This document shows, in pieces, positions 3 through 49,893 of a stretch of DNA of 64,000 nucleotides (its first letter is position 1; each line of letters opens with the position of its first letter). The notes beneath the pieces were generated by a model. That model saw only the letters and a program-made list of their open reading frames with translations. It was not told the DNA's origin and did not search any database. This stretch comes from Candidatus Heimdallarchaeota archaeon (GTDB lineage: Archaea; Asgardarchaeota; Heimdallarchaeia; Hodarchaeales; Hodarchaeaceae): the NCBI GenBank assembly GCA_020353515.1, contig CP070695.1, positions 3,161,532 to 3,225,531 on the forward strand. Reading direction: 5' to 3'. Both the position numbers and the translations under genes were made by a program.

Positions 3-851
3 ACTCATGAAGGAGAAGTGTGGGATTACCGTCTAGGACAGAAAAGAGTCGTAAAGAATCAAGTTCTTCCAATTATCGCTGTCCCTACTACAGCAGGCAC
101 TGGATCCGAAGTCACACCAATGGCAGTAATAAAAAATCCTGATGAGAAGTTCAAGTCTGCCCTTGCTGATTGGTCTCTAACCCCAAGGGTTAGTATAATT
201 GATCCTGAACTTACCCTGACCCTTCCACCGTATATTACTGCAGCAACTGGTTTTGACGTTTTTTGTCATGCATTTGAAAGTTTTTTACATAAAAGTGCTT
301 CAGATTATGTCGATCTTCTCGCTTTAGAGGCAATAAGACAAGTGATTAATCATCTTCCAGTTGTTGTTAAAGATGGGTCAAACAAAGAGGCAAGGGAGAC
401 GATGTCTTGGGCAAGCACCCTTGGGGGGATGTGTATTACAAATGCGGGGACTACACTAGCCCATGGAATTGGTATGGCTATTGGAGGGCATGTTACAGAT
501 GTAATGCATGGAGAAGCACTAGCTGCTATATATCCGACAGTGAACCAGTGGACGTGGAAACATGCAAAATCAAAATATGCAACAGTAGGTAGAATGTTTA
601 ATCCTGATTTGAAAAATGAATCTGATGAAGTGGCAGCAGAAGCATCATGCTATGAAATGGATGCGTTTCTGAAAAAAATTGGTTTATGGATGAATTTGAG
701 GGAGCTAAACGTGCTTGAAAATCAACTAAAAGCAATTGGGGCTGATACAATGAAACTCAAAAACTATACTGTTCATCCTAAAGTCCCCACCCTTTTAGAA
801 ATAAACAATCTTATTTTAGCAAGCTACATGGCTGTGTTGGAGGGCTATTAG
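3..851 (+). CDS. Iron-containing alcohol dehydrogenase, 5'-partial at the window edge; last codons probably come from a fused Rab relic
   Basis: AVPTTAGTGSEVT, IIDPELT, TAATGFDVFCHAFES, TLAHGIG and HGEALA motifs; frame is open back to position 3. Confidence 0.93.
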   Translation, partial: THEGEVWDYRLGQKRVVKNQVLPIIAVPTTAGTGSEVTPMAVIKNPDEKFKSALADWSLTPRVSIIDPELTLTLPPYITAATGFDVFCHAFESFLHKSASDYVDLLALEAIRQVINHLPVVVKDGSNKEARETMSWASTLGGMCITNAGTTLAHGIGMAIGGHVTDVMHGEALAAIYPTVNQWTWKHAKSKYATVGRMFNPDLKNESDEVAAEASCYEMDAFLKKIGLWMNLRELNVLENQLKAIGADTMKLKNYTVHPKVPTLLEINNLILASYMAVLEGY

Positions 852-1189
852 TGTACGATGTCACTCGTCCTGATTCGTTTCACAACATGCCTAAGTGGAT
901 TAACGAACTGTGGATAAATAATGGACGCGGTCGTGTACCTATTGTTGTAGTCGCAAATAAAATTGACTTGTGTAGTGGAGGAGATTCCACGATTTCTCGT
1001 GATCAGGGTTGGTCTTTTACTAAGAGTCTGAGTAATCTTACTAAACCTGCTGGATTTCTATGTCATTTTATTGAAACGTCTGCTAAAACTGGAGTAAATA
1101 TCTCTCAAGCTTTTTCATTACTAGGCACAAATATTGGGAAGTTCATAGAAAATCATCGAAAGACTCCCTTATTGGCATCTTACCTATGA
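830..1189 (+). pseudogene. C-terminal half of a Rab-like small GTPase (G1-G3 missing)
   Basis: Reads GCVGGLLVYDVTRPDSF...VVANKID (G4)...ETSAK (G5) from 830; upstream is ADH sequence with no P-loop. Confidence 0.85.
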
Positions 1190-24079: not shown

Positions 24080-24607
24080 ATGGTTGACAAATATTTATTC
24101 AAATTTTGTGCTATTGGGTCTGGTAATGTTGGAAAAACCTCTTTGATAAGGAGGTTTGCAACAGGGAAATTTACGGAAGGAATATATCACCCTACTCTAG
24201 GAGTTGATATCACTACTTCCAAGCACCTTTCTGTCGATAATAAACTCGTTGATCTACTCCTTGTAGATACTGCGGGGCAAGAATATTTTAGCAAATTACG
24301 ACCAGAATATTATCGTGGAGCTTCAGCTTGTCTCATTGTGTTTGCTCTTAATGAAAGGCCATCATTTGAAGCTATCCCAGATTGGCTGGCAGAATTTCGG
24401 AAGTACATCCCTCAATCTTCAGTTCCAATTGCCTTGGTAGGTAATAAGAAAGACCTTGATGACCAACGGCAAGTTTCTACCGAAGAGGCTTATTCATGGG
24501 CAGAAGCCAAAGATATGACTTATCATGAGACTTCCGCAAAATTAGGGGGCCTTGATATTAAGGAAATATTTACGGGGTTAATAAGACGCATTTTTCAAGA
24601 GAACTAA
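24080..24607 (+). CDS. Rab-like small GTPase
   Basis: GSGNVGKTS, PTLGVD, DTAGQE, NKKD, ETSAK. Confidence 0.95.
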   Translation: MVDKYLFKFCAIGSGNVGKTSLIRRFATGKFTEGIYHPTLGVDITTSKHLSVDNKLVDLLLVDTAGQEYFSKLRPEYYRGASACLIVFALNERPSFEAIPDWLAEFRKYIPQSSVPIALVGNKKDLDDQRQVSTEEAYSWAEAKDMTYHETSAKLGGLDIKEIFTGLIRRIFQEN

Positions 24608-30124: not shown

Positions 30125-33100
30125 ATGACACTTTTCATCATTTTATTTCATATTTGGATATCTAGGCATTTTATCAAATGTGTTGATACTGAAGAGGTCA
30201 GAAGAATTCCTCATAGAAATGAAAAAATTTGGAGTATTAATAGGTGGATAATTATAAATAAAATTGTACCGAGTTTTCTAATTATTATTGTGATTAACAC
30301 AGCATTCCTTTTATTTCCATTTTATACTGAAGCATTGGAATCTTTTAATGACCCTTCTAGGAGCAATGATCAACAAATCATTTTCAATGAAAATAAACAA
30401 GAAAAATATCAATCTATATCTGAACTGAGAAATAATTCACCAATTAGGTCAGGTGAAAAAAGACCTAGCTTTAGTCTAGAGAGTAACTTCAATTTATCAG
30501 TCCTAAAACCTGTTAGTAATGGCACTAAATCAGAAATTCCATCTGAAAATCCTGTGGGAGGTATTCATTGGCAATTAGTATCAGACATCAATGACAGTTC
30601 TTACATTATTGAGGATTATTCTACTGCTACATCTTATACAGAAACGTACCAATCTCAAAATATTTCGGGTATTTCGGGTACTATCAACTCAGTATCCCTA
30701 TATATACGCGTTCGAACTAGTATAGCATTTACTAATGCTCGAGCTTGGACAGTATTACGTACATATGATAAAGAATACGTTGGGCCTTTGAATGAACCCT
30801 TAACTAGTTGGAATAATTATTCTACGAAATATTTGATTAATCCCAACACTTCTGTAAACTGGACGTGGGATGAAGTGAATACAATGGAGATTGGAGTTAT
30901 GTTACGAGCGTTACCACAACAGGATAGAGAATGCTGGTGTTCTGAAGTCTGGGCCGAGGTTAACTATACCCAAACATTTGACCTAGATCCTCCATCAATT
31001 ATTGACCACGGAGTAGAGGATTTGGGGAATGGTACAGGTGTTTTTTGGGCTGATATCAGAGACACTTTATCTAGTGTGGATACTACAAATATATCAATTA
31101 ATAATACTGAATATTCGATGATAAACAACGGATCGTATTGGATATATCCAAAAGCAGTTTTGTATAAGAGATATTATGAATTTCAAATAATAAATTCATC
31201 CGATTCTAATGGAAATTATATTAGCTCTCCTTCAGATATCAAGTCTTATTCGTTTAATTCAGACGTTGTTGCTCCTATTGTGGACACTCCAGTCTATAAC
31301 TCTACACTTGGTGATAATGGAACATTTAAAGTTAATATAAGGGATCCGTGGGGGGAAGTTGATACTGTACTTGTTAATGTTACTTTTGCAGCAGGTGTTC
31401 CTCAACATAAAGTATGGGCTGTGATGATAAATACCACTTCTGGATACATGACTAAGACTTTACCAATAGATAAAGGTATTTTTCATTATGTTATCATTGC
31501 CAATGACACAAAAGGGAATAGAGGTACTTCTAATGAAATAATCTCGAGTGTCCCTAATCATTTCCCTGAAGTTACTGATTTACGACTCTCTAGTGACCAA
31601 GATCGCCTTCAAATGACTATATTTAGTAATGATACTCTCTTTGTTCAATATATGTTTTTTGATCGTGATGGTGATAACGAAGGAGGGACTGAAATACACT
31701 GGTATAAAAATGGTGTAATTCAACCCGCTCATAATGATTCTCGTCTAGTAACAGCCTCTTATTTGACCAAAAATGATCAATGGTTTATTACTGTTAAACC
31801 AAAAGATGCCCAAGAGTTTGGAATAAAACAAACTTCTGACACCATAACGATTCTAAATGTTCCTCCAAATGTGTGTAATTATTCGTATATCTTTGATTCA
31901 AGGAGCCAGATTATTCCAGAAATCAGATCTACCTTACTAGGTCAAGTTTTTTTCATCGAAGATGAAGATATCTCCCTTTTTTATGAGTTTGAAGATAGTG
32001 ATCACCCTATAGATTATGATCAATCCCTGATTCAATGGTATAGCAAATTAGAAACTAGCGAATGGGAGGAAGTCTTTACTCGTCAAAATTCAACCTTCAT
32101 TCCTTCTTCTGAAACGTCACCAGGGGAGTACTGGAAATGCAAGATCACCCCTTATGATGGTACCGAATTAGGAAAAAGTGTGCCTCTGAATGTGATTTAT
32201 ATCGAAAGCCGTCCGTGTATTCTAAATTACAGCGTTTCACCTATAATCCTCGATGATAAAGGAATGTACTTCGATGAAGGAAAATATAAATTTCAAGTAG
32301 TTACTTCCAGTCTTAATCCAATTGCTACCATAGAGTTCATAATAAATGACTCTTCTGAGGGAATTTATTATGCTCAAAAAAGTCAGGATAATAATTCAAT
32401 ATGGATTTTAGATTATAATATACCCCCAAGCGAGTTTTGTGACAATTATATGGGGAAAATTTTCACAACCAAAGTTAGAGCTTGTAGTTTTGTAGATTAT
32501 CAAGACCAAGAGTTTATGATATATGCTAATTATACTTTTTTATTTGGGGTAGAAGACAAATGTCCCCCTCGTGTTGTAGGTAAACCTAGTGTTACCTTTG
32601 ATTCTCTTGACCCTTCAAATATTACTTTTTTCTCATATGTAATCGATTATGGTTCTGAGATTGAAGAAGTATTTCTTTACTACTATTTTAGAGAAATTGA
32701 TGAAACAACACTAGCAGGAATTGGGGCTAGTTTACCGCAAAAGGATATTCCATGGCAAGTTATACAGATGTCCCTCCTCTCAGTCAATGAGACTAATGTT
32801 ATTCATAGTTATTCAGTTACTGTTCCATTTGAACATAATGATACATCTAGAGCAATAATTTATTATATTAAAACCACTGATAGTAGTGGAAATACAGGAA
32901 TTCCTTATAATATCTTAAATGATCCAGAGAGGATTCGAGAATTTCATTTTGAGAAAGATGCTTTTCTATTTGATCCATTACTAGTGATTATACTCATTGT
33001 TTTCACAATCATCTTAACCCTTTTAGGTTCCATTTTATACCTTAGGATCTTTAGAAAACCTGAACTGATTGGATTTGATGAAGAAATAGTTCTTAATAAC

Positions 33101-33631
33101 ATCTCTGAAGTTAGTGAATCGGAGATAATGGAAATTCTTGATATTCATACTGTTGGGGTAGTCATAGCATTTTTTGATCAGCAGCATGGTCCAATTCCAA
33201 TTATTATAACCCCAGAAATATTAAAGGATAATTTTCCCAAGTTAATTGAACTGTCTGATAGATCTTTTGGGACTATAGGGTTTATTCAAGACTTTGAGAG
33301 AAAAATAACATCAAATTTTGACTTTTTGTTATCAAAAGAACTCCTTATCACATCGTTATCGTTTGGTTTTGCCTTACAACGACCTGATGCGAGAGGAGGC
33401 CAAGAGAACCTGATCATGAATATTCTGATATATCCAGATGTATTCCCGTTTATTAATCAATTTCTTGATGAAATTCGTGAGAAAGTAGATATTGTTCATA
33501 AGTTAATGGATAAAGACAGCTCAAAGAAAGAGTTGATCCTGTCAAAGATTATTGACATCAGAAAATATATTTCCCAAATTATTTTAGCGTATGAGAAAAC
33601 TTATGGCACCACGGATCTTCTCACCACATAA
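30125..33631 (+). CDS. Large membrane protein: Ig-like ectodomain, TM helix, cytoplasmic longin/uDENN-like domain (start uncertain)
   Basis: N-terminal hydrophobic segment, beta-rich N-x-S/T-rich repeats, TM + RIFRK, then VIAFFDQQHGP..LSDRSF..DARGGQENL. Confidence 0.8.
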   Translation: MTLFIILFHIWISRHFIKCVDTEEVRRIPHRNEKIWSINRWIIINKIVPSFLIIIVINTAFLLFPFYTEALESFNDPSRSNDQQIIFNENKQEKYQSISELRNNSPIRSGEKRPSFSLESNFNLSVLKPVSNGTKSEIPSENPVGGIHWQLVSDINDSSYIIEDYSTATSYTETYQSQNISGISGTINSVSLYIRVRTSIAFTNARAWTVLRTYDKEYVGPLNEPLTSWNNYSTKYLINPNTSVNWTWDEVNTMEIGVMLRALPQQDRECWCSEVWAEVNYTQTFDLDPPSIIDHGVEDLGNGTGVFWADIRDTLSSVDTTNISINNTEYSMINNGSYWIYPKAVLYKRYYEFQIINSSDSNGNYISSPSDIKSYSFNSDVVAPIVDTPVYNSTLGDNGTFKVNIRDPWGEVDTVLVNVTFAAGVPQHKVWAVMINTTSGYMTKTLPIDKGIFHYVIIANDTKGNRGTSNEIISSVPNHFPEVTDLRLSSDQDRLQMTIFSNDTLFVQYMFFDRDGDNEGGTEIHWYKNGVIQPAHNDSRLVTASYLTKNDQWFITVKPKDAQEFGIKQTSDTITILNVPPNVCNYSYIFDSRSQIIPEIRSTLLGQVFFIEDEDISLFYEFEDSDHPIDYDQSLIQWYSKLETSEWEEVFTRQNSTFIPSSETSPGEYWKCKITPYDGTELGKSVPLNVIYIESRPCILNYSVSPIILDDKGMYFDEGKYKFQVVTSSLNPIATIEFIINDSSEGIYYAQKSQDNNSIWILDYNIPPSEFCDNYMGKIFTTKVRACSFVDYQDQEFMIYANYTFLFGVEDKCPPRVVGKPSVTFDSLDPSNITFFSYVIDYGSEIEEVFLYYYFREIDETTLAGIGASLPQKDIPWQVIQMSLLSVNETNVIHSYSVTVPFEHNDTSRAIIYYIKTTDSSGNTGIPYNILNDPERIREFHFEKDAFLFDPLLVIILIVFTIILTLLGSILYLRIFRKPELIGFDEEIVLNNISEVSESEIMEILDIHTVGVVIAFFDQQHGPIPIIITPEILKDNFPKLIELSDRSFGTIGFIQDFERKITSNFDFLLSKELLITSLSFGFALQRPDARGGQENLIMNILIYPDVFPFINQFLDEIREKVDIVHKLMDKDSSKKELILSKIIDIRKYISQIILAYEKTYGTTDLLTT

Positions 33632-33778: not shown

Positions 33779-34474
33779 TTGTTCTTTAACCAGATTAAAC
33801 ACCAAGGTTGTATCTTCTTCTTACTTTGCGTACTTATTATTTCATCTGGGGGCTGTTTACAAGCCTTCGCGAGAGCTATCCAAGAGGAGTGGCAGATCCA
33901 GGTGGGGGATTCCCAAACCTATATCTATGATGATTTTTATGAGGTTTCTTCCGATAATTCCTCTGAATACATTTATTGGATTATAGATGAAAACAATAAC
34001 AATGTTACCATAATTCTCAAAAAAGGATTAACTCTTCGTTATGATATTACATTCCTCGATCCAGATGAAGCAAGAGGAACAATAACATATAATGGAACCA
34101 TTACTAGTTTAGAACAATCTCTCTCATCTCGTACCTATTCGGGGTGGACTGGAATCGTTAGACCTTCAATTAACAATAAAAGTTATTGGGAGGAATATTG
34201 TAGATTCCGGGGTCTGGAAAACGTTACGGGTGATTTCATCGTTATGGAGATTAATACAGATATTATAAATCAAATTTCCATATGGAACTGGAAAACAGGG
34301 TGGCTCAACTACTATTATGAGATGTATTGGAATGACACAACAATTATCTCGTTGAGGGAAATCTCTCTTGTCCCTCAGGAAAATGAACCGCCTCCTCCAT
34401 TAAATGTTATTGTTGGGGGTTTCATCTTAGTATTCATCATTCTTATTCTTGTAGGAATTAAGAAATTTAAATAG
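33779..34474 (+). CDS. Secreted protein with a C-terminal TM anchor
   Basis: Signal peptide, WQIQVGDSQTY, Pro linker, TM + KKFK. Confidence 0.8.
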   Translation: MFFNQIKHQGCIFFLLCVLIISSGGCLQAFARAIQEEWQIQVGDSQTYIYDDFYEVSSDNSSEYIYWIIDENNNNVTIILKKGLTLRYDITFLDPDEARGTITYNGTITSLEQSLSSRTYSGWTGIVRPSINNKSYWEEYCRFRGLENVTGDFIVMEINTDIINQISIWNWKTGWLNYYYEMYWNDTTIISLREISLVPQENEPPPPLNVIVGGFILVFIILILVGIKKFK

Positions 34475-35499: not shown

Positions 35500-36096
35500 A
35501 TGTCCATGGATGAAGAACTTGTGTTTAGAATACTCTTCATCTCCATTTATGCCGTCTTTGCTGGAGTAAGAATCTATTACAGGAGTCAGAATATTGGTAG
35601 AACGAGTGAAAAAGAGTATACTCAAAAGACTAAGGCTATTACTGTCCTAATAGTCGCCATTCTTGGATACTTTCTGACTGTGGGGTTATGGATTGTTTTT
35701 CCTCCGATTGTCCTTATCTTTCAGATTCCTTTACCCTCTGTCATTCGTTGGTTCGGAGGAGGAATAGCTTTAATCGCCACAGCTCTTACTGTGTGGATTC
35801 ATCGTATATTGGGAAAACAGTATTCTGCGAAGTTGGAGATCCAAAAGGGCCATGAGCTAATAACCGTGGGACCTTATAGCAAAATCCGACATCCAATGTA
35901 TTCTTCCCTCAATCTGTTTTCCCTATCTGTCTCATTAATTTCAGCGAACCTATTACTCATATTATTTGCGATTTCTGTTGCCATTCCTTTCCATTGGATA
36001 ACTAGGGCTGAAGAGGAGCTTCTGATAGAGCAGTTTGGTGAAGAATACTTGGAGTATATGCAAACCACTGGACGATTTTTTCCTCGTCTCTGGTGA
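35500..36096 (+). CDS. Isoprenylcysteine carboxyl methyltransferase/PEMT-family membrane protein
   Basis: HELITVGPYSKIRHPMY, EEELL..FGEEYLEY. Confidence 0.92.
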   Translation: MSMDEELVFRILFISIYAVFAGVRIYYRSQNIGRTSEKEYTQKTKAITVLIVAILGYFLTVGLWIVFPPIVLIFQIPLPSVIRWFGGGIALIATALTVWIHRILGKQYSAKLEIQKGHELITVGPYSKIRHPMYSSLNLFSLSVSLISANLLLILFAISVAIPFHWITRAEEELLIEQFGEEYLEYMQTTGRFFPRLW

Positions 36097-49281: not shown

Positions 49282-49893
49282 ATGCCCAAGTCTTCCCTTA
49301 GAGCGAAAATATTATTGATCGGAGATGGTGGAGTGGGGAAAAGTTCATTTCGTCGGGCTTGGCTTGGTGAAACCTTTCGCACCCAGTATATTATGACTCT
49401 TGGGGCGGATTTTGCAGCTAAAGAGATTACTCAATTCTACCCTCCAACAAATACCTATTTTACAATTAAATACCAAATTTGGGATCTTGCAGGCCAACCT
49501 AGGTTTAAAGTTGTTAGCGACCTTTATTACCGAGGTGCGGTCGGTGCTCTTTGTTTTTTTGACATCACAGATCAAGGTTCCTTTACAAATCTCATGGAAT
49601 GGATTAATTCTTATTGGAATCTAAATGGTCAGGGTAAACGACCTCTTTTAATCATAGGGGCAAAGAGTGATCTTCGGAAAAGTCCTAATTTTCCAAATCA
49701 AGTATCCTCTCAACATGGTTTAGAACTAGCAGACAGACTCACAAAAAGTGTCCAAACTGACCACAAATTTAGTATCTATTATGTTGAAACTTCAGCTAAA
49801 GAAAACATCAATGTAGAGAAAGCCTTTCAACTATTAGGAACTGAAGTTATCAAACTATACTATCAAATGATAACACCTATCTTTCAAAAATGA
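49282..49893 (+). CDS. Rab-like small GTPase
   Basis: GDGGVGKSS, TLGADF, WDLAGQ, AKSD (variant G4), ETSAK. Confidence 0.95.
   Translation: MPKSSLRAKILLIGDGGVGKSSFRRAWLGETFRTQYIMTLGADFAAKEITQFYPPTNTYFTIKYQIWDLAGQPRFKVVSDLYYRGAVGALCFFDITDQGSFTNLMEWINSYWNLNGQGKRPLLIIGAKSDLRKSPNFPNQVSSQHGLELADRLTKSVQTDHKFSIYYVETSAKENINVEKAFQLLGTEVIKLYYQMITPIFQK

Follow-up and report, generated by a model that had tools for sequence, protein, structure and literature searches.

Does a cell-surface protein of an Asgard archaeon carry, on the inner side of the membrane, a regulator of small GTPases of the kind that eukaryotes use? The question is raised by a single intact open reading frame (ORF) at 30125..33631 (+), 1168 codons long when counted from the first ATG, in a 64,000-nucleotide stretch of the Candidatus Heimdallarchaeota archaeon genome (G000:C1:3161532-3225531, here called the window; the genome is one contig of 4.94 Mb). 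The stretch that holds the ORF is AT-rich (~33% G+C). An original prediction made from the letters of the sequence had described the product as a receptor-like protein with about 900 amino acids (aa) of immunoglobulin (Ig)-like repeats outside the cell, a transmembrane (TM) helix and a cytoplasmic longin/uDENN-like domain, and had linked that domain to two small GTPases encoded in the window. The ORF and the two motifs singled out in its product are present as claimed, with VIAFFDQQHGP beginning at residue 1013 and DARGG at residue 1088. Public databases name the relatives of this protein hypothetical, LamG or DUF2341.

In eukaryotic nutrient signaling, Rag and Arf GTPases are controlled by GTPase-activating proteins (GAPs) whose catalytic cores are longins of the folliculin, NPRL2 and SMCR8 types. 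Judged by its modeled fold and its signature motifs, the 190-aa tail that follows the TM helix is a longin of this GAP-type (folliculin/SMCR8/NPRL2) class. We modeled residues 978-1168 with AlphaFold2 (AF2) on an alignment of 145 tails (alignment A1), which gave a predicted local distance difference test score (pLDDT) of 92.5 and a predicted template modeling score (pTM) of 0.89. In the models, juxtamembrane helices (33080..33148 (+), residues 986-1008) precede a longin domain (33149..33604 (+), residues 1009-1160) with the order strand-strand-helix-strand-strand-strand-helix-helix, and the protein ends eight residues past the last longin helix. DSSP assigned E32-41, E45-52, H54-74, E84-93, E96-108, E116-125, H137-153 and H158-183 in the tail model. 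The succession of leading helices, strand 1, strand 2, a helix, strands 3-5 and two long helices is the longin topology.

Foldseek searches with the tail returned LOV/PAS chains mixed with FLCN, Lst4 and NPRL, at similar E-values and with low template modeling scores. This ambiguity was settled in favor of the longins, and LOV/PAS was rejected as the fold of the tail, by an exhaustive VIA-align (VIA) comparison of the tail model with 48,161 representative structures, in which the top 25 or so matches were longins. The best was a Lokiarchaeal longin (8yqg_B; Z 13.4 over 141 residues, root-mean-square deviation [rmsd] 3.0), and the others included FLCN (6nzd_H, Z 11.6), the C9orf72-SMCR8 complex (7o2w_A, Z 11.4), Lst4 (4zy8, Z 10.8), GATOR1 (8fw5_B, Z 10.2), FNIP2 (6ulg_N, Z 9.8), the C9orf72-SMCR8-WDR41 complex (6lt0_B, Z 9.7), the SEA complex (8adl_S, Z 9.4) and DENND1A (6ekk_A, Z 8.8). 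Longins of TRAPP, AP sigma, VAMP7 and Mon1-Ccz1 matched with Z about 6-8.2 (several chains; TRAPP, AP sigma and VAMP7 at 7-8), and Roadblock and GAF chains with Z 6-6.5, the roadblocks over about 97-100 residues. The longin and roadblock folds are related, and the two long C-terminal helices of the tail suit the longin better. Neighbors in the ESM Atlas included Avl9, C9orf72, “UDENN FLCN/SMCR8-type” proteins, an Asgard PF11704 cluster and Asgard GTPase-longin fusions. Searches of PDB sequences with the tail, with the tail profile and with a soluble folliculin-like protein of the same genome (see below) returned no folliculin or longin chain. A prediction of a tail homodimer (two copies, A1) scored 0.00 in both runs, which counts neither way. 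The last 190 residues are thus longin-like by VIA, and of the predicted longin/uDENN-like domain the longin half stands. The uDENN half does not, as the tail consists of the longin only, with no DENN core or module.

The two motifs picked out by eye proved to be conserved hallmarks of the family. The GP motif (G1022-P1023; 33188..33193 (+)) lies at the start of strand 2, and its glycine is kept in 145/145 relatives and its proline in 142/145. The RPDARGG loop between strands 4 and 5 (33380..33400 (+)) includes the candidate arginine finger R1090 (33392-33394), which is kept in 143 of the 145. Across A1, G45, P48 and R169 are invariant (domain numbering; adding 977 gives protein numbering), and conservation is 90% or higher at F40, D41, Q42, P46, R113, G114, G115, E117 and N118. 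Because strand 1 of a longin sheet pairs with strand 5, the GP turn and the arginine loop should lie at the same edge of the sheet, as far as the topology tells. A GP motif, which by definition closes the strand 1-2 loop or opens strand 2, together with an arginine finger marks the GAP longins FLCN, NPRL2, SMCR8 and C9orf72; the combination is absent from non-GAP longins and occurs in some Asgard longins (PMC12290439).

A fainter link to folliculin is visible at the level of sequence profiles. Matches to the Pfam Folliculin profile (PF11704, curated cut-off 23.3 bits) were detected below threshold in 28/145 tails (14-19 bits, best E 1.9e-4), and in 8/10 members of the most divergent subgroup, where domain residues about 98-163 align with profile positions 48-110. 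The matching stretch comprises strand 4, the arginine loop, strand 5 and helix 2. The tail is not a formal member of the Pfam Folliculin family. We identified a soluble 439-aa folliculin-like protein in the same genome (G000:C1:680191-681510; L001:1192-2511), which has a longin with FDEEHGP and EARG motifs followed by a C-terminal domain, and which matches the same region of PF11704 just below the cut-off (21.1 bits). Most relatives of this protein carry PF11704, and G32, P33 and R100 are invariant in their family alignment (A3). Profile-profile comparison with hhalign aligned A1 with the 439-aa protein (probability 77%, E 2e-5) and with A3 (probability 72%, E 3.5e-5), in both cases pairing FDxxHGP with FDEEHGP and ARG with ARG. 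R1090 is thereby paired with R100, the invariant arginine of the Asgard folliculin-like family, and both correspond to position ~61 of the Pfam Folliculin profile. A Roadblock/LC7-like gene (G000:C1:679138-679632; L001:139-633) lies directly upstream of the 439-aa folliculin-like gene, and the pair resembles the roadblock-plus-DENN/folliculin module of Liu et al. (bioRxiv 10.1101/2020.10.19.343400).

The protein that carries this tail is a type I single-pass surface glycoprotein, with an N-terminal signal, one TM helix and a sequon-rich ectodomain, although its orientation is predicted from these elements. Hydropathy revealed two hydrophobic segments only, at residues 41-68 and 947-976. The first is a signal peptide or signal anchor (30245..30328 (+), residues 41-68, from hydropathy and orthologues), and the second contains the TM helix (32975..33049 (+), residues 951-975, from hydropathy and a modeled helix), which is followed by the basic residues R974, R977 and K978. 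The charges that flank this helix are not decisive for orientation when taken alone. N-x-S/T sequons are strongly enriched between residues 70 and 945 (30 observed vs 11.3 expected; none of 2000 shuffles reached 30), whereas the tail has one (0.8 expected), so that the enrichment is confined to the ectodomain. Given a signal peptide, one TM helix and an ectodomain of beta-sandwiches rich in sequons, the C-terminal 190 residues are probably cytoplasmic. The large ectodomain, the TM helix and the inward-facing tail of the original prediction therefore agree with hydropathy, signal peptides, sequons and the helix model, the placement of the tail inside the cell being itself a prediction from orthologue signal peptides, the two hydrophobic segments and the ectodomain sequons.

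Where translation begins is uncertain. In-frame starts are available at codon 1 (ATG), codon 56 (GTG) and codon 71 (TTG), and the public gene call (P0002) uses the GTG at codon 56, which yields 1113 aa. Collinear orthologues are 1095-1147 aa long, at 52-88% identity. The orthologues P0006, P0007, P0009 and P0012 start with canonical signal peptides, to which residues 44-70 align, and because of this alignment we regard the N-terminal signal or anchor as a family feature that is present here too.

Most of the ectodomain, from residue 290 to 945 (30992..32959 (+)), is an all-beta chain of about six beta-sandwich (Ig/fibronectin type III [FN3]-like) domains with an AF2 pLDDT of 80-94, in a full-length model built on a 62-row alignment (A2; mean pLDDT 74). 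Foldseek matched the full-length model to the tandem Ig/FN3 chains of contactin-2, titin, MDGA1, gp130, RPTP-sigma, SiiE and GhpA (E 1e-14 to 1e-9). A family repeat of ~85-105 aa is present twice (about residues 480-587 and 590-695) and reaches up to about 15 copies in larger relatives, and the membrane-proximal module (about residues 590-945) is common to most family members. The predicted run of about 900 aa of Ig-like repeats thus holds for ~650 of roughly 880 residues. For residues 70-287, the ectodomain “head” (30332..30985 (+)), the model gives no confident fold (pLDDT below 50). The head is conserved in orthologues and has local matches in a few giant relatives (P0049, P0054, P0057 and P0082). 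A language-model search with residues 110-290 (window 30452-30994) found unnamed clusters of ~160-aa tailed-phage proteins as nearest neighbors (score 0.90), with MAM-domain clusters further away. We take this likeness as no more than a lead toward a jelly-roll or receptor-binding-type fold.

An exhaustive phmmer search with residues 978-1168 recovered 149 representative clusters, including 75 with E<=1e-30. Of about 140 full-length relatives, whose lengths run from about 200 to 5800 aa, nearly all end in the longin tail and have a hydrophobic TM helix 0-5 residues ahead of it. The conserved unit is stalk, TM helix and tail; the heads vary (LamG, DUF2341, glycoside hydrolase family 16 [GH16]). 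In ten members of the family that lack a TM helix, a scan for N-terminal domains yielded only a weak TPR match, in one protein. The named relatives come from Hodarchaeales, Kariarchaeaceae, “Heimdallarchaeota” and a few otherwise labeled Asgard metagenome-assembled genomes. We also surveyed 400 genomes of the phylum for tail matches. Strong matches occurred in 20/21 other genomes of the same genus, with up to at least 8 per genome, and in two further families of the class 22/31 and 10/12 genomes had matches at about 1e-35. The remaining Asgard lineages gave weak matches only (1e-6 to 1e-13), which are probably other longins. On these sequence comparisons, the receptor-longin family is confined to Heimdall-group Asgard archaea, and the predicted architecture of a TM helix with a C-terminal longin tail recurs across their genomes.

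The genome analyzed here has five intact copies and one 81-codon remnant. The remnant (G000:C1:338948-339190; L003:3967-4194) covers profile positions 96-176 (E 9e-30) and lies ~0.9 kb downstream of an intact paralogue of 632-723 aa; it looks like a decayed tandem copy. Another paralogue, of 1296 aa (G000:C1:4292075-4295965; L004:1076-4966), has a GH16 ectodomain (E 1.5e-22) before its TM helix and longin tail, and the heads of the family include carbohydrate-active or carbohydrate-binding modules.

Which GTPase such a tail might serve is suggested by the sister subfamilies. Profiles of the tail, of Rag and of Ras were run against 20 loci around family members of other genomes. Across the two other families of the class, Rag-like genes are directly adjacent in 11/13 loci and in conserved order: a weak Ras-like gene of ~250 aa, one or more receptors (about 1450-1640 aa), a Rag-like gene (500-670 aa) and an opposite-strand Rag-like gene of about 410-427 aa. 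Pfam assigned the Rag-like genes to Gtr1_RagA at E 1e-23 to 5e-39. The Rag-linked member at L010 6030-10640, with L010 10658-12160 and 12167-13402 beside it, is the pairing predicted most strongly. Judged by the density in the genome studied here, a chance neighbor would be Rag-like for roughly 1% of genes, and the loci are related and thus are not independent counts. Within the clade of the window's protein, one member (L020) is flanked by Rag-like genes and a 3688-aa member from the same genus (L025) has one directly downstream. A maximum-likelihood tree of 30 tails (midpoint root only) has two clades with Rag adjacency on both sides, and the Rag linkage is therefore probably old in the family and was lost in the orthogroup of the window's protein. 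Tandem arrays of two or three ~1600-aa receptor-longin paralogues were found in other families of the class, at L007 (G022:C160), L014 and L017, each ending beside Rag-like genes.

By analogy with eukaryotic GAP longins, we propose that the protein could be a folliculin-type regulator of a Rag-like GTPase, tethered to the membrane and probably working as a GAP, and we give this proposal about an even chance of being correct. The variable ectodomain outside, with its head and about six Ig/FN3-like beta-sandwiches, would be joined through one TM helix to the cytoplasmic longin. The tail would hold a small GTPase against the inside of the cell membrane and regulate it there, most probably with the loop arginine R1090 next to the GP motif stimulating GTP hydrolysis, as in FLCN, NPRL2 and SMCR8. 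Because the sister subfamilies adjoin such genes, the client would most likely be a Gtr1/RagA-like GTPase; an Arf- or Rab-like client is less likely. Through what it binds or senses, the ectodomain would decide whether the GTPase is switched, or at which place. What we infer here are the binding of a GTPase, the GAP chemistry, which GTPase is the client and the coupling of ectodomain to tail.

Several observations weigh against this proposal. Neither the whole protein nor the tail has a Pfam match at E<=1, and the profile-profile probabilities that connect the tail with folliculin-like proteins are moderate (72-77%). R1090 is a putative equivalent of the eukaryotic arginine fingers (FLCN R164, NPRL2 R78 and SMCR8 R147) by loop position and sequence alignment, not by residue-level superposition. 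The orthologues at L005, L006, L021 and L022 lie on large contigs and have no GTPase neighbor, and none of the five copies in the genome studied here has an adjacent GTPase gene; the nearest Rag-like pair, which is divergent, is 6.4 kb from a different paralogue (2903782-2905248). Known GAP longins form heterodimers with another longin and have additional domains. No longin or roadblock gene was found among the neighbors of the window's gene or beside the orthologues at L005 and L006, and no genome-wide search for a partner was made. Moreover, most longin and roadblock platforms are guanine nucleotide exchange factors (GEFs) or scaffolds, not GAPs (PMC10933270).

That last point speaks for a different role, in which the tail would bind a small GTPase but serve as a GEF, as a platform without catalysis or as a site that recruits effectors, comparable to TRAPP, Mon1-Ccz1, Ragulator or MglB-like proteins. 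The longins of DENND1A, TRAPP and Mon1-Ccz1 also match the model (Z 6-9), a second longin or DENN domain is not present in the protein, and a GEF role has been proposed for Asgard folliculin-like modules by Liu et al. (bioRxiv 10.1101/2020.10.19.343400). However, the best structural matches are GAP-type longins, and the GP motif and loop arginine, which are reported to be absent from non-GAP longins (PMC12290439), are nearly invariant in the tails. We consider a platform or GEF role unlikely.

A role independent of GTPases has a similarly low probability. The tail could be a cytoplasmic anchor, oligomerization or sorting module of adhesin-like or S-layer-like glycoproteins, in the way that the longins of SNAREs and adaptors bind partners from coats or the cytoskeleton. 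The constancy of stalk, TM helix and tail under variable heads (LamG, DUF2341, GH16) is adhesin-like, the orthogroup has no GTPase neighbor, and the longins of VAMP7, Ykt6 and AP sigma match at Z 6-8. Such a role leaves unexplained both the near-invariance of the GP and ARG motifs and the conserved Rag-type neighbors of the sister subfamilies.

The partners named in the original prediction fared less well. The genes at 24080-24607 and 49282-49893 are genuine Ras-family GTPases by Pfam (E 2.5e-46 and 1.7e-37), without a Gtr1_RagA match, and, as the original prediction noted, they are not adjacent to the receptor gene. SMCR8-C9orf72 and DENN proteins do act on Arf and Rab GTPases. However, the two genes lie on either side of the receptor gene at a distance of at least 5.5 kb (5.5 kb for the nearer one), outside any shared operon, and their presence in the window is unremarkable because the density of GTPase genes in the genome predicts about 0.8 per 64 kb. 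The genome has 58 PF00071 matches, and our own hidden Markov models detected 55 Ras-like and 9 Rag-like genes, the latter at G000:C1 2307-3254, 145388-146647, 1227305-1228189, 1525248-1526156, 2893843-2894772, 2895149-2897365, 4151744-4152682, 4154474-4155562 and 4157878-4158816. Orthologues elsewhere lack such neighbors, and the synteny of the family favors Rag-type over Ras-type clients. Signaling from the tail to these two Ras/Rab-like GTPases is therefore very improbable, and we do not retain the link. A third Ras-like sequence in the window, a 112-aa ORF at 851-1189 (+), aligns with no more than the C-terminal half of the Ras profile (positions 70-160) and may represent a small GTPase gene that is truncated or has a wrongly placed start.

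That the ORF is an artefact rather than a real gene, or that the tail is extracellular, is scarcely credible: the start codon is uncertain and the charges around the TM helix are indecisive alone, but the collinear orthologues, the 149 clusters of relatives, the orthologue signal peptides, the confinement of sequon enrichment to the ectodomain and the confident longin model all argue against it.

The immediate surroundings of the gene are not conserved. We sought a conserved operon around it and around its orthologues (L005, L006, L021 and L022) and found none. The sole loosely recurring downstream neighbor is an ICMT/PEMT-type methyltransferase gene, which lies a few kb downstream, at 35500-36096 (+) in the window and at L005 17734-18417 (-) in the genome of an orthologue. 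As the Ras-like proteins of the window have no CaaX ending, a prenyl-processing link for this methyltransferase is not apparent. An ORF of 231 aa (33779-34474 (+)) starts 148 bp downstream of the receptor gene. Its product has an N-terminal signal-like segment, several sequons, a C-terminal hydrophobic anchor after a proline run and no Pfam match. As a small secreted protein with a C-terminal anchor, whose gene is not kept beside the orthologues, it was rejected as a partner. A scan for promoters and terminators with bacterial models, which are ill-suited to an archaeon, yielded no more matches than shuffled sequence.

Asgard folliculin-like and NPRL2-like longins have been published, including fusions to two-component domains (bioRxiv 10.1101/2020.10.19.343400; PMC12290439), and a membrane-spanning surface-protein version of the Asgard folliculin-type longin is not mentioned in the papers that could be searched. 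In the archaea most closely related to eukaryotes, such a version may offer a concrete and testable path by which the cell surface reaches a GTPase switch of eukaryote-like kind. The Rag-type neighbors of the sister subfamilies name candidate partners, and the member in the window, having no GTPase linked to it, is the less informative example. In topology, the archaeal plasma membrane is the equivalent of the lysosomal membrane, and the outside of the cell corresponds to the lumen. A bolder and tentative idea, with only a modest chance of being right, is that these proteins are receptor-GAPs in which a surface ectodomain that binds a ligand or a contact directly controls a folliculin-type longin that switches Rag-like GTPases at the plasma membrane, that the eukaryotic lysosomal FLCN/GATOR-Rag axis of nutrient sensing descends from cell-surface sensing in the ancestor of the Heimdall group, and that the orthogroup in the window would have lost its Rag linkage.

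Among known systems, FLCN-FNIP2 and its yeast counterpart Lst7-Lst4 are the GAP for RagC/D-Gtr2 (PDB 6nzd, 6ulg, 8dhb and 4zy8). The tail resembles the folliculin longin in fold (Z 11.6 for FLCN and 10.8 for Lst4), in the xHGP turn before strand 2 and in the ARG loop between strands 4 and 5. Further likenesses are the sub-threshold PF11704 matches of its relatives over the arginine loop and the location of the sister subfamilies beside Rag-type GTPases. Unlike folliculin, the protein has no DENN domain after the longin, no FNIP-like partner gene among its neighbors and no Pfam match of its own; and whereas folliculin is soluble and recruited to lysosomes, this protein spans the membrane and has a large extracellular part. 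SMCR8-C9orf72 (CSW; Z 11.4 for 7o2w and 9.7 for 6lt0) and NPRL2-NPRL3 (GATOR1/SEACIT; Z 10.2 for 8fw5 and 9.4 for 8adl) likewise share the fold, and with it the GP and arginine finger signature (PMC12290439), but they are soluble multi-subunit complexes with extra domains that act on Arf/Rab or on RagA/B at lysosomes.

The soluble folliculin-like proteins of the same organisms share the FDxxHGP and ARG motifs (hhalign E 2e-5 to 3.5e-5). These differ in having PF11704, a C-terminal domain and a roadblock neighbor, whereas the protein in the window has a longin-only tail on a surface protein. The longin of the Lokiarchaeota Roadblock-Longin protein (8yqg) is the best structural match (Z 13.4, 141 residues, rmsd 3.0), but it belongs to a soluble roadblock-longin fusion that was solved as a dimer and is 14% identical to the tail. 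The longin SNAREs (VAMP7, Sec22 and Ykt6) also place a longin on a single-pass membrane protein (Z 6-7.5). In these, the order is reversed, with an N-terminal longin and a C-terminal tail anchor, there is no ectodomain and there are no GP or ARG motifs, and the match is much weaker than those to the folliculin-type longins.

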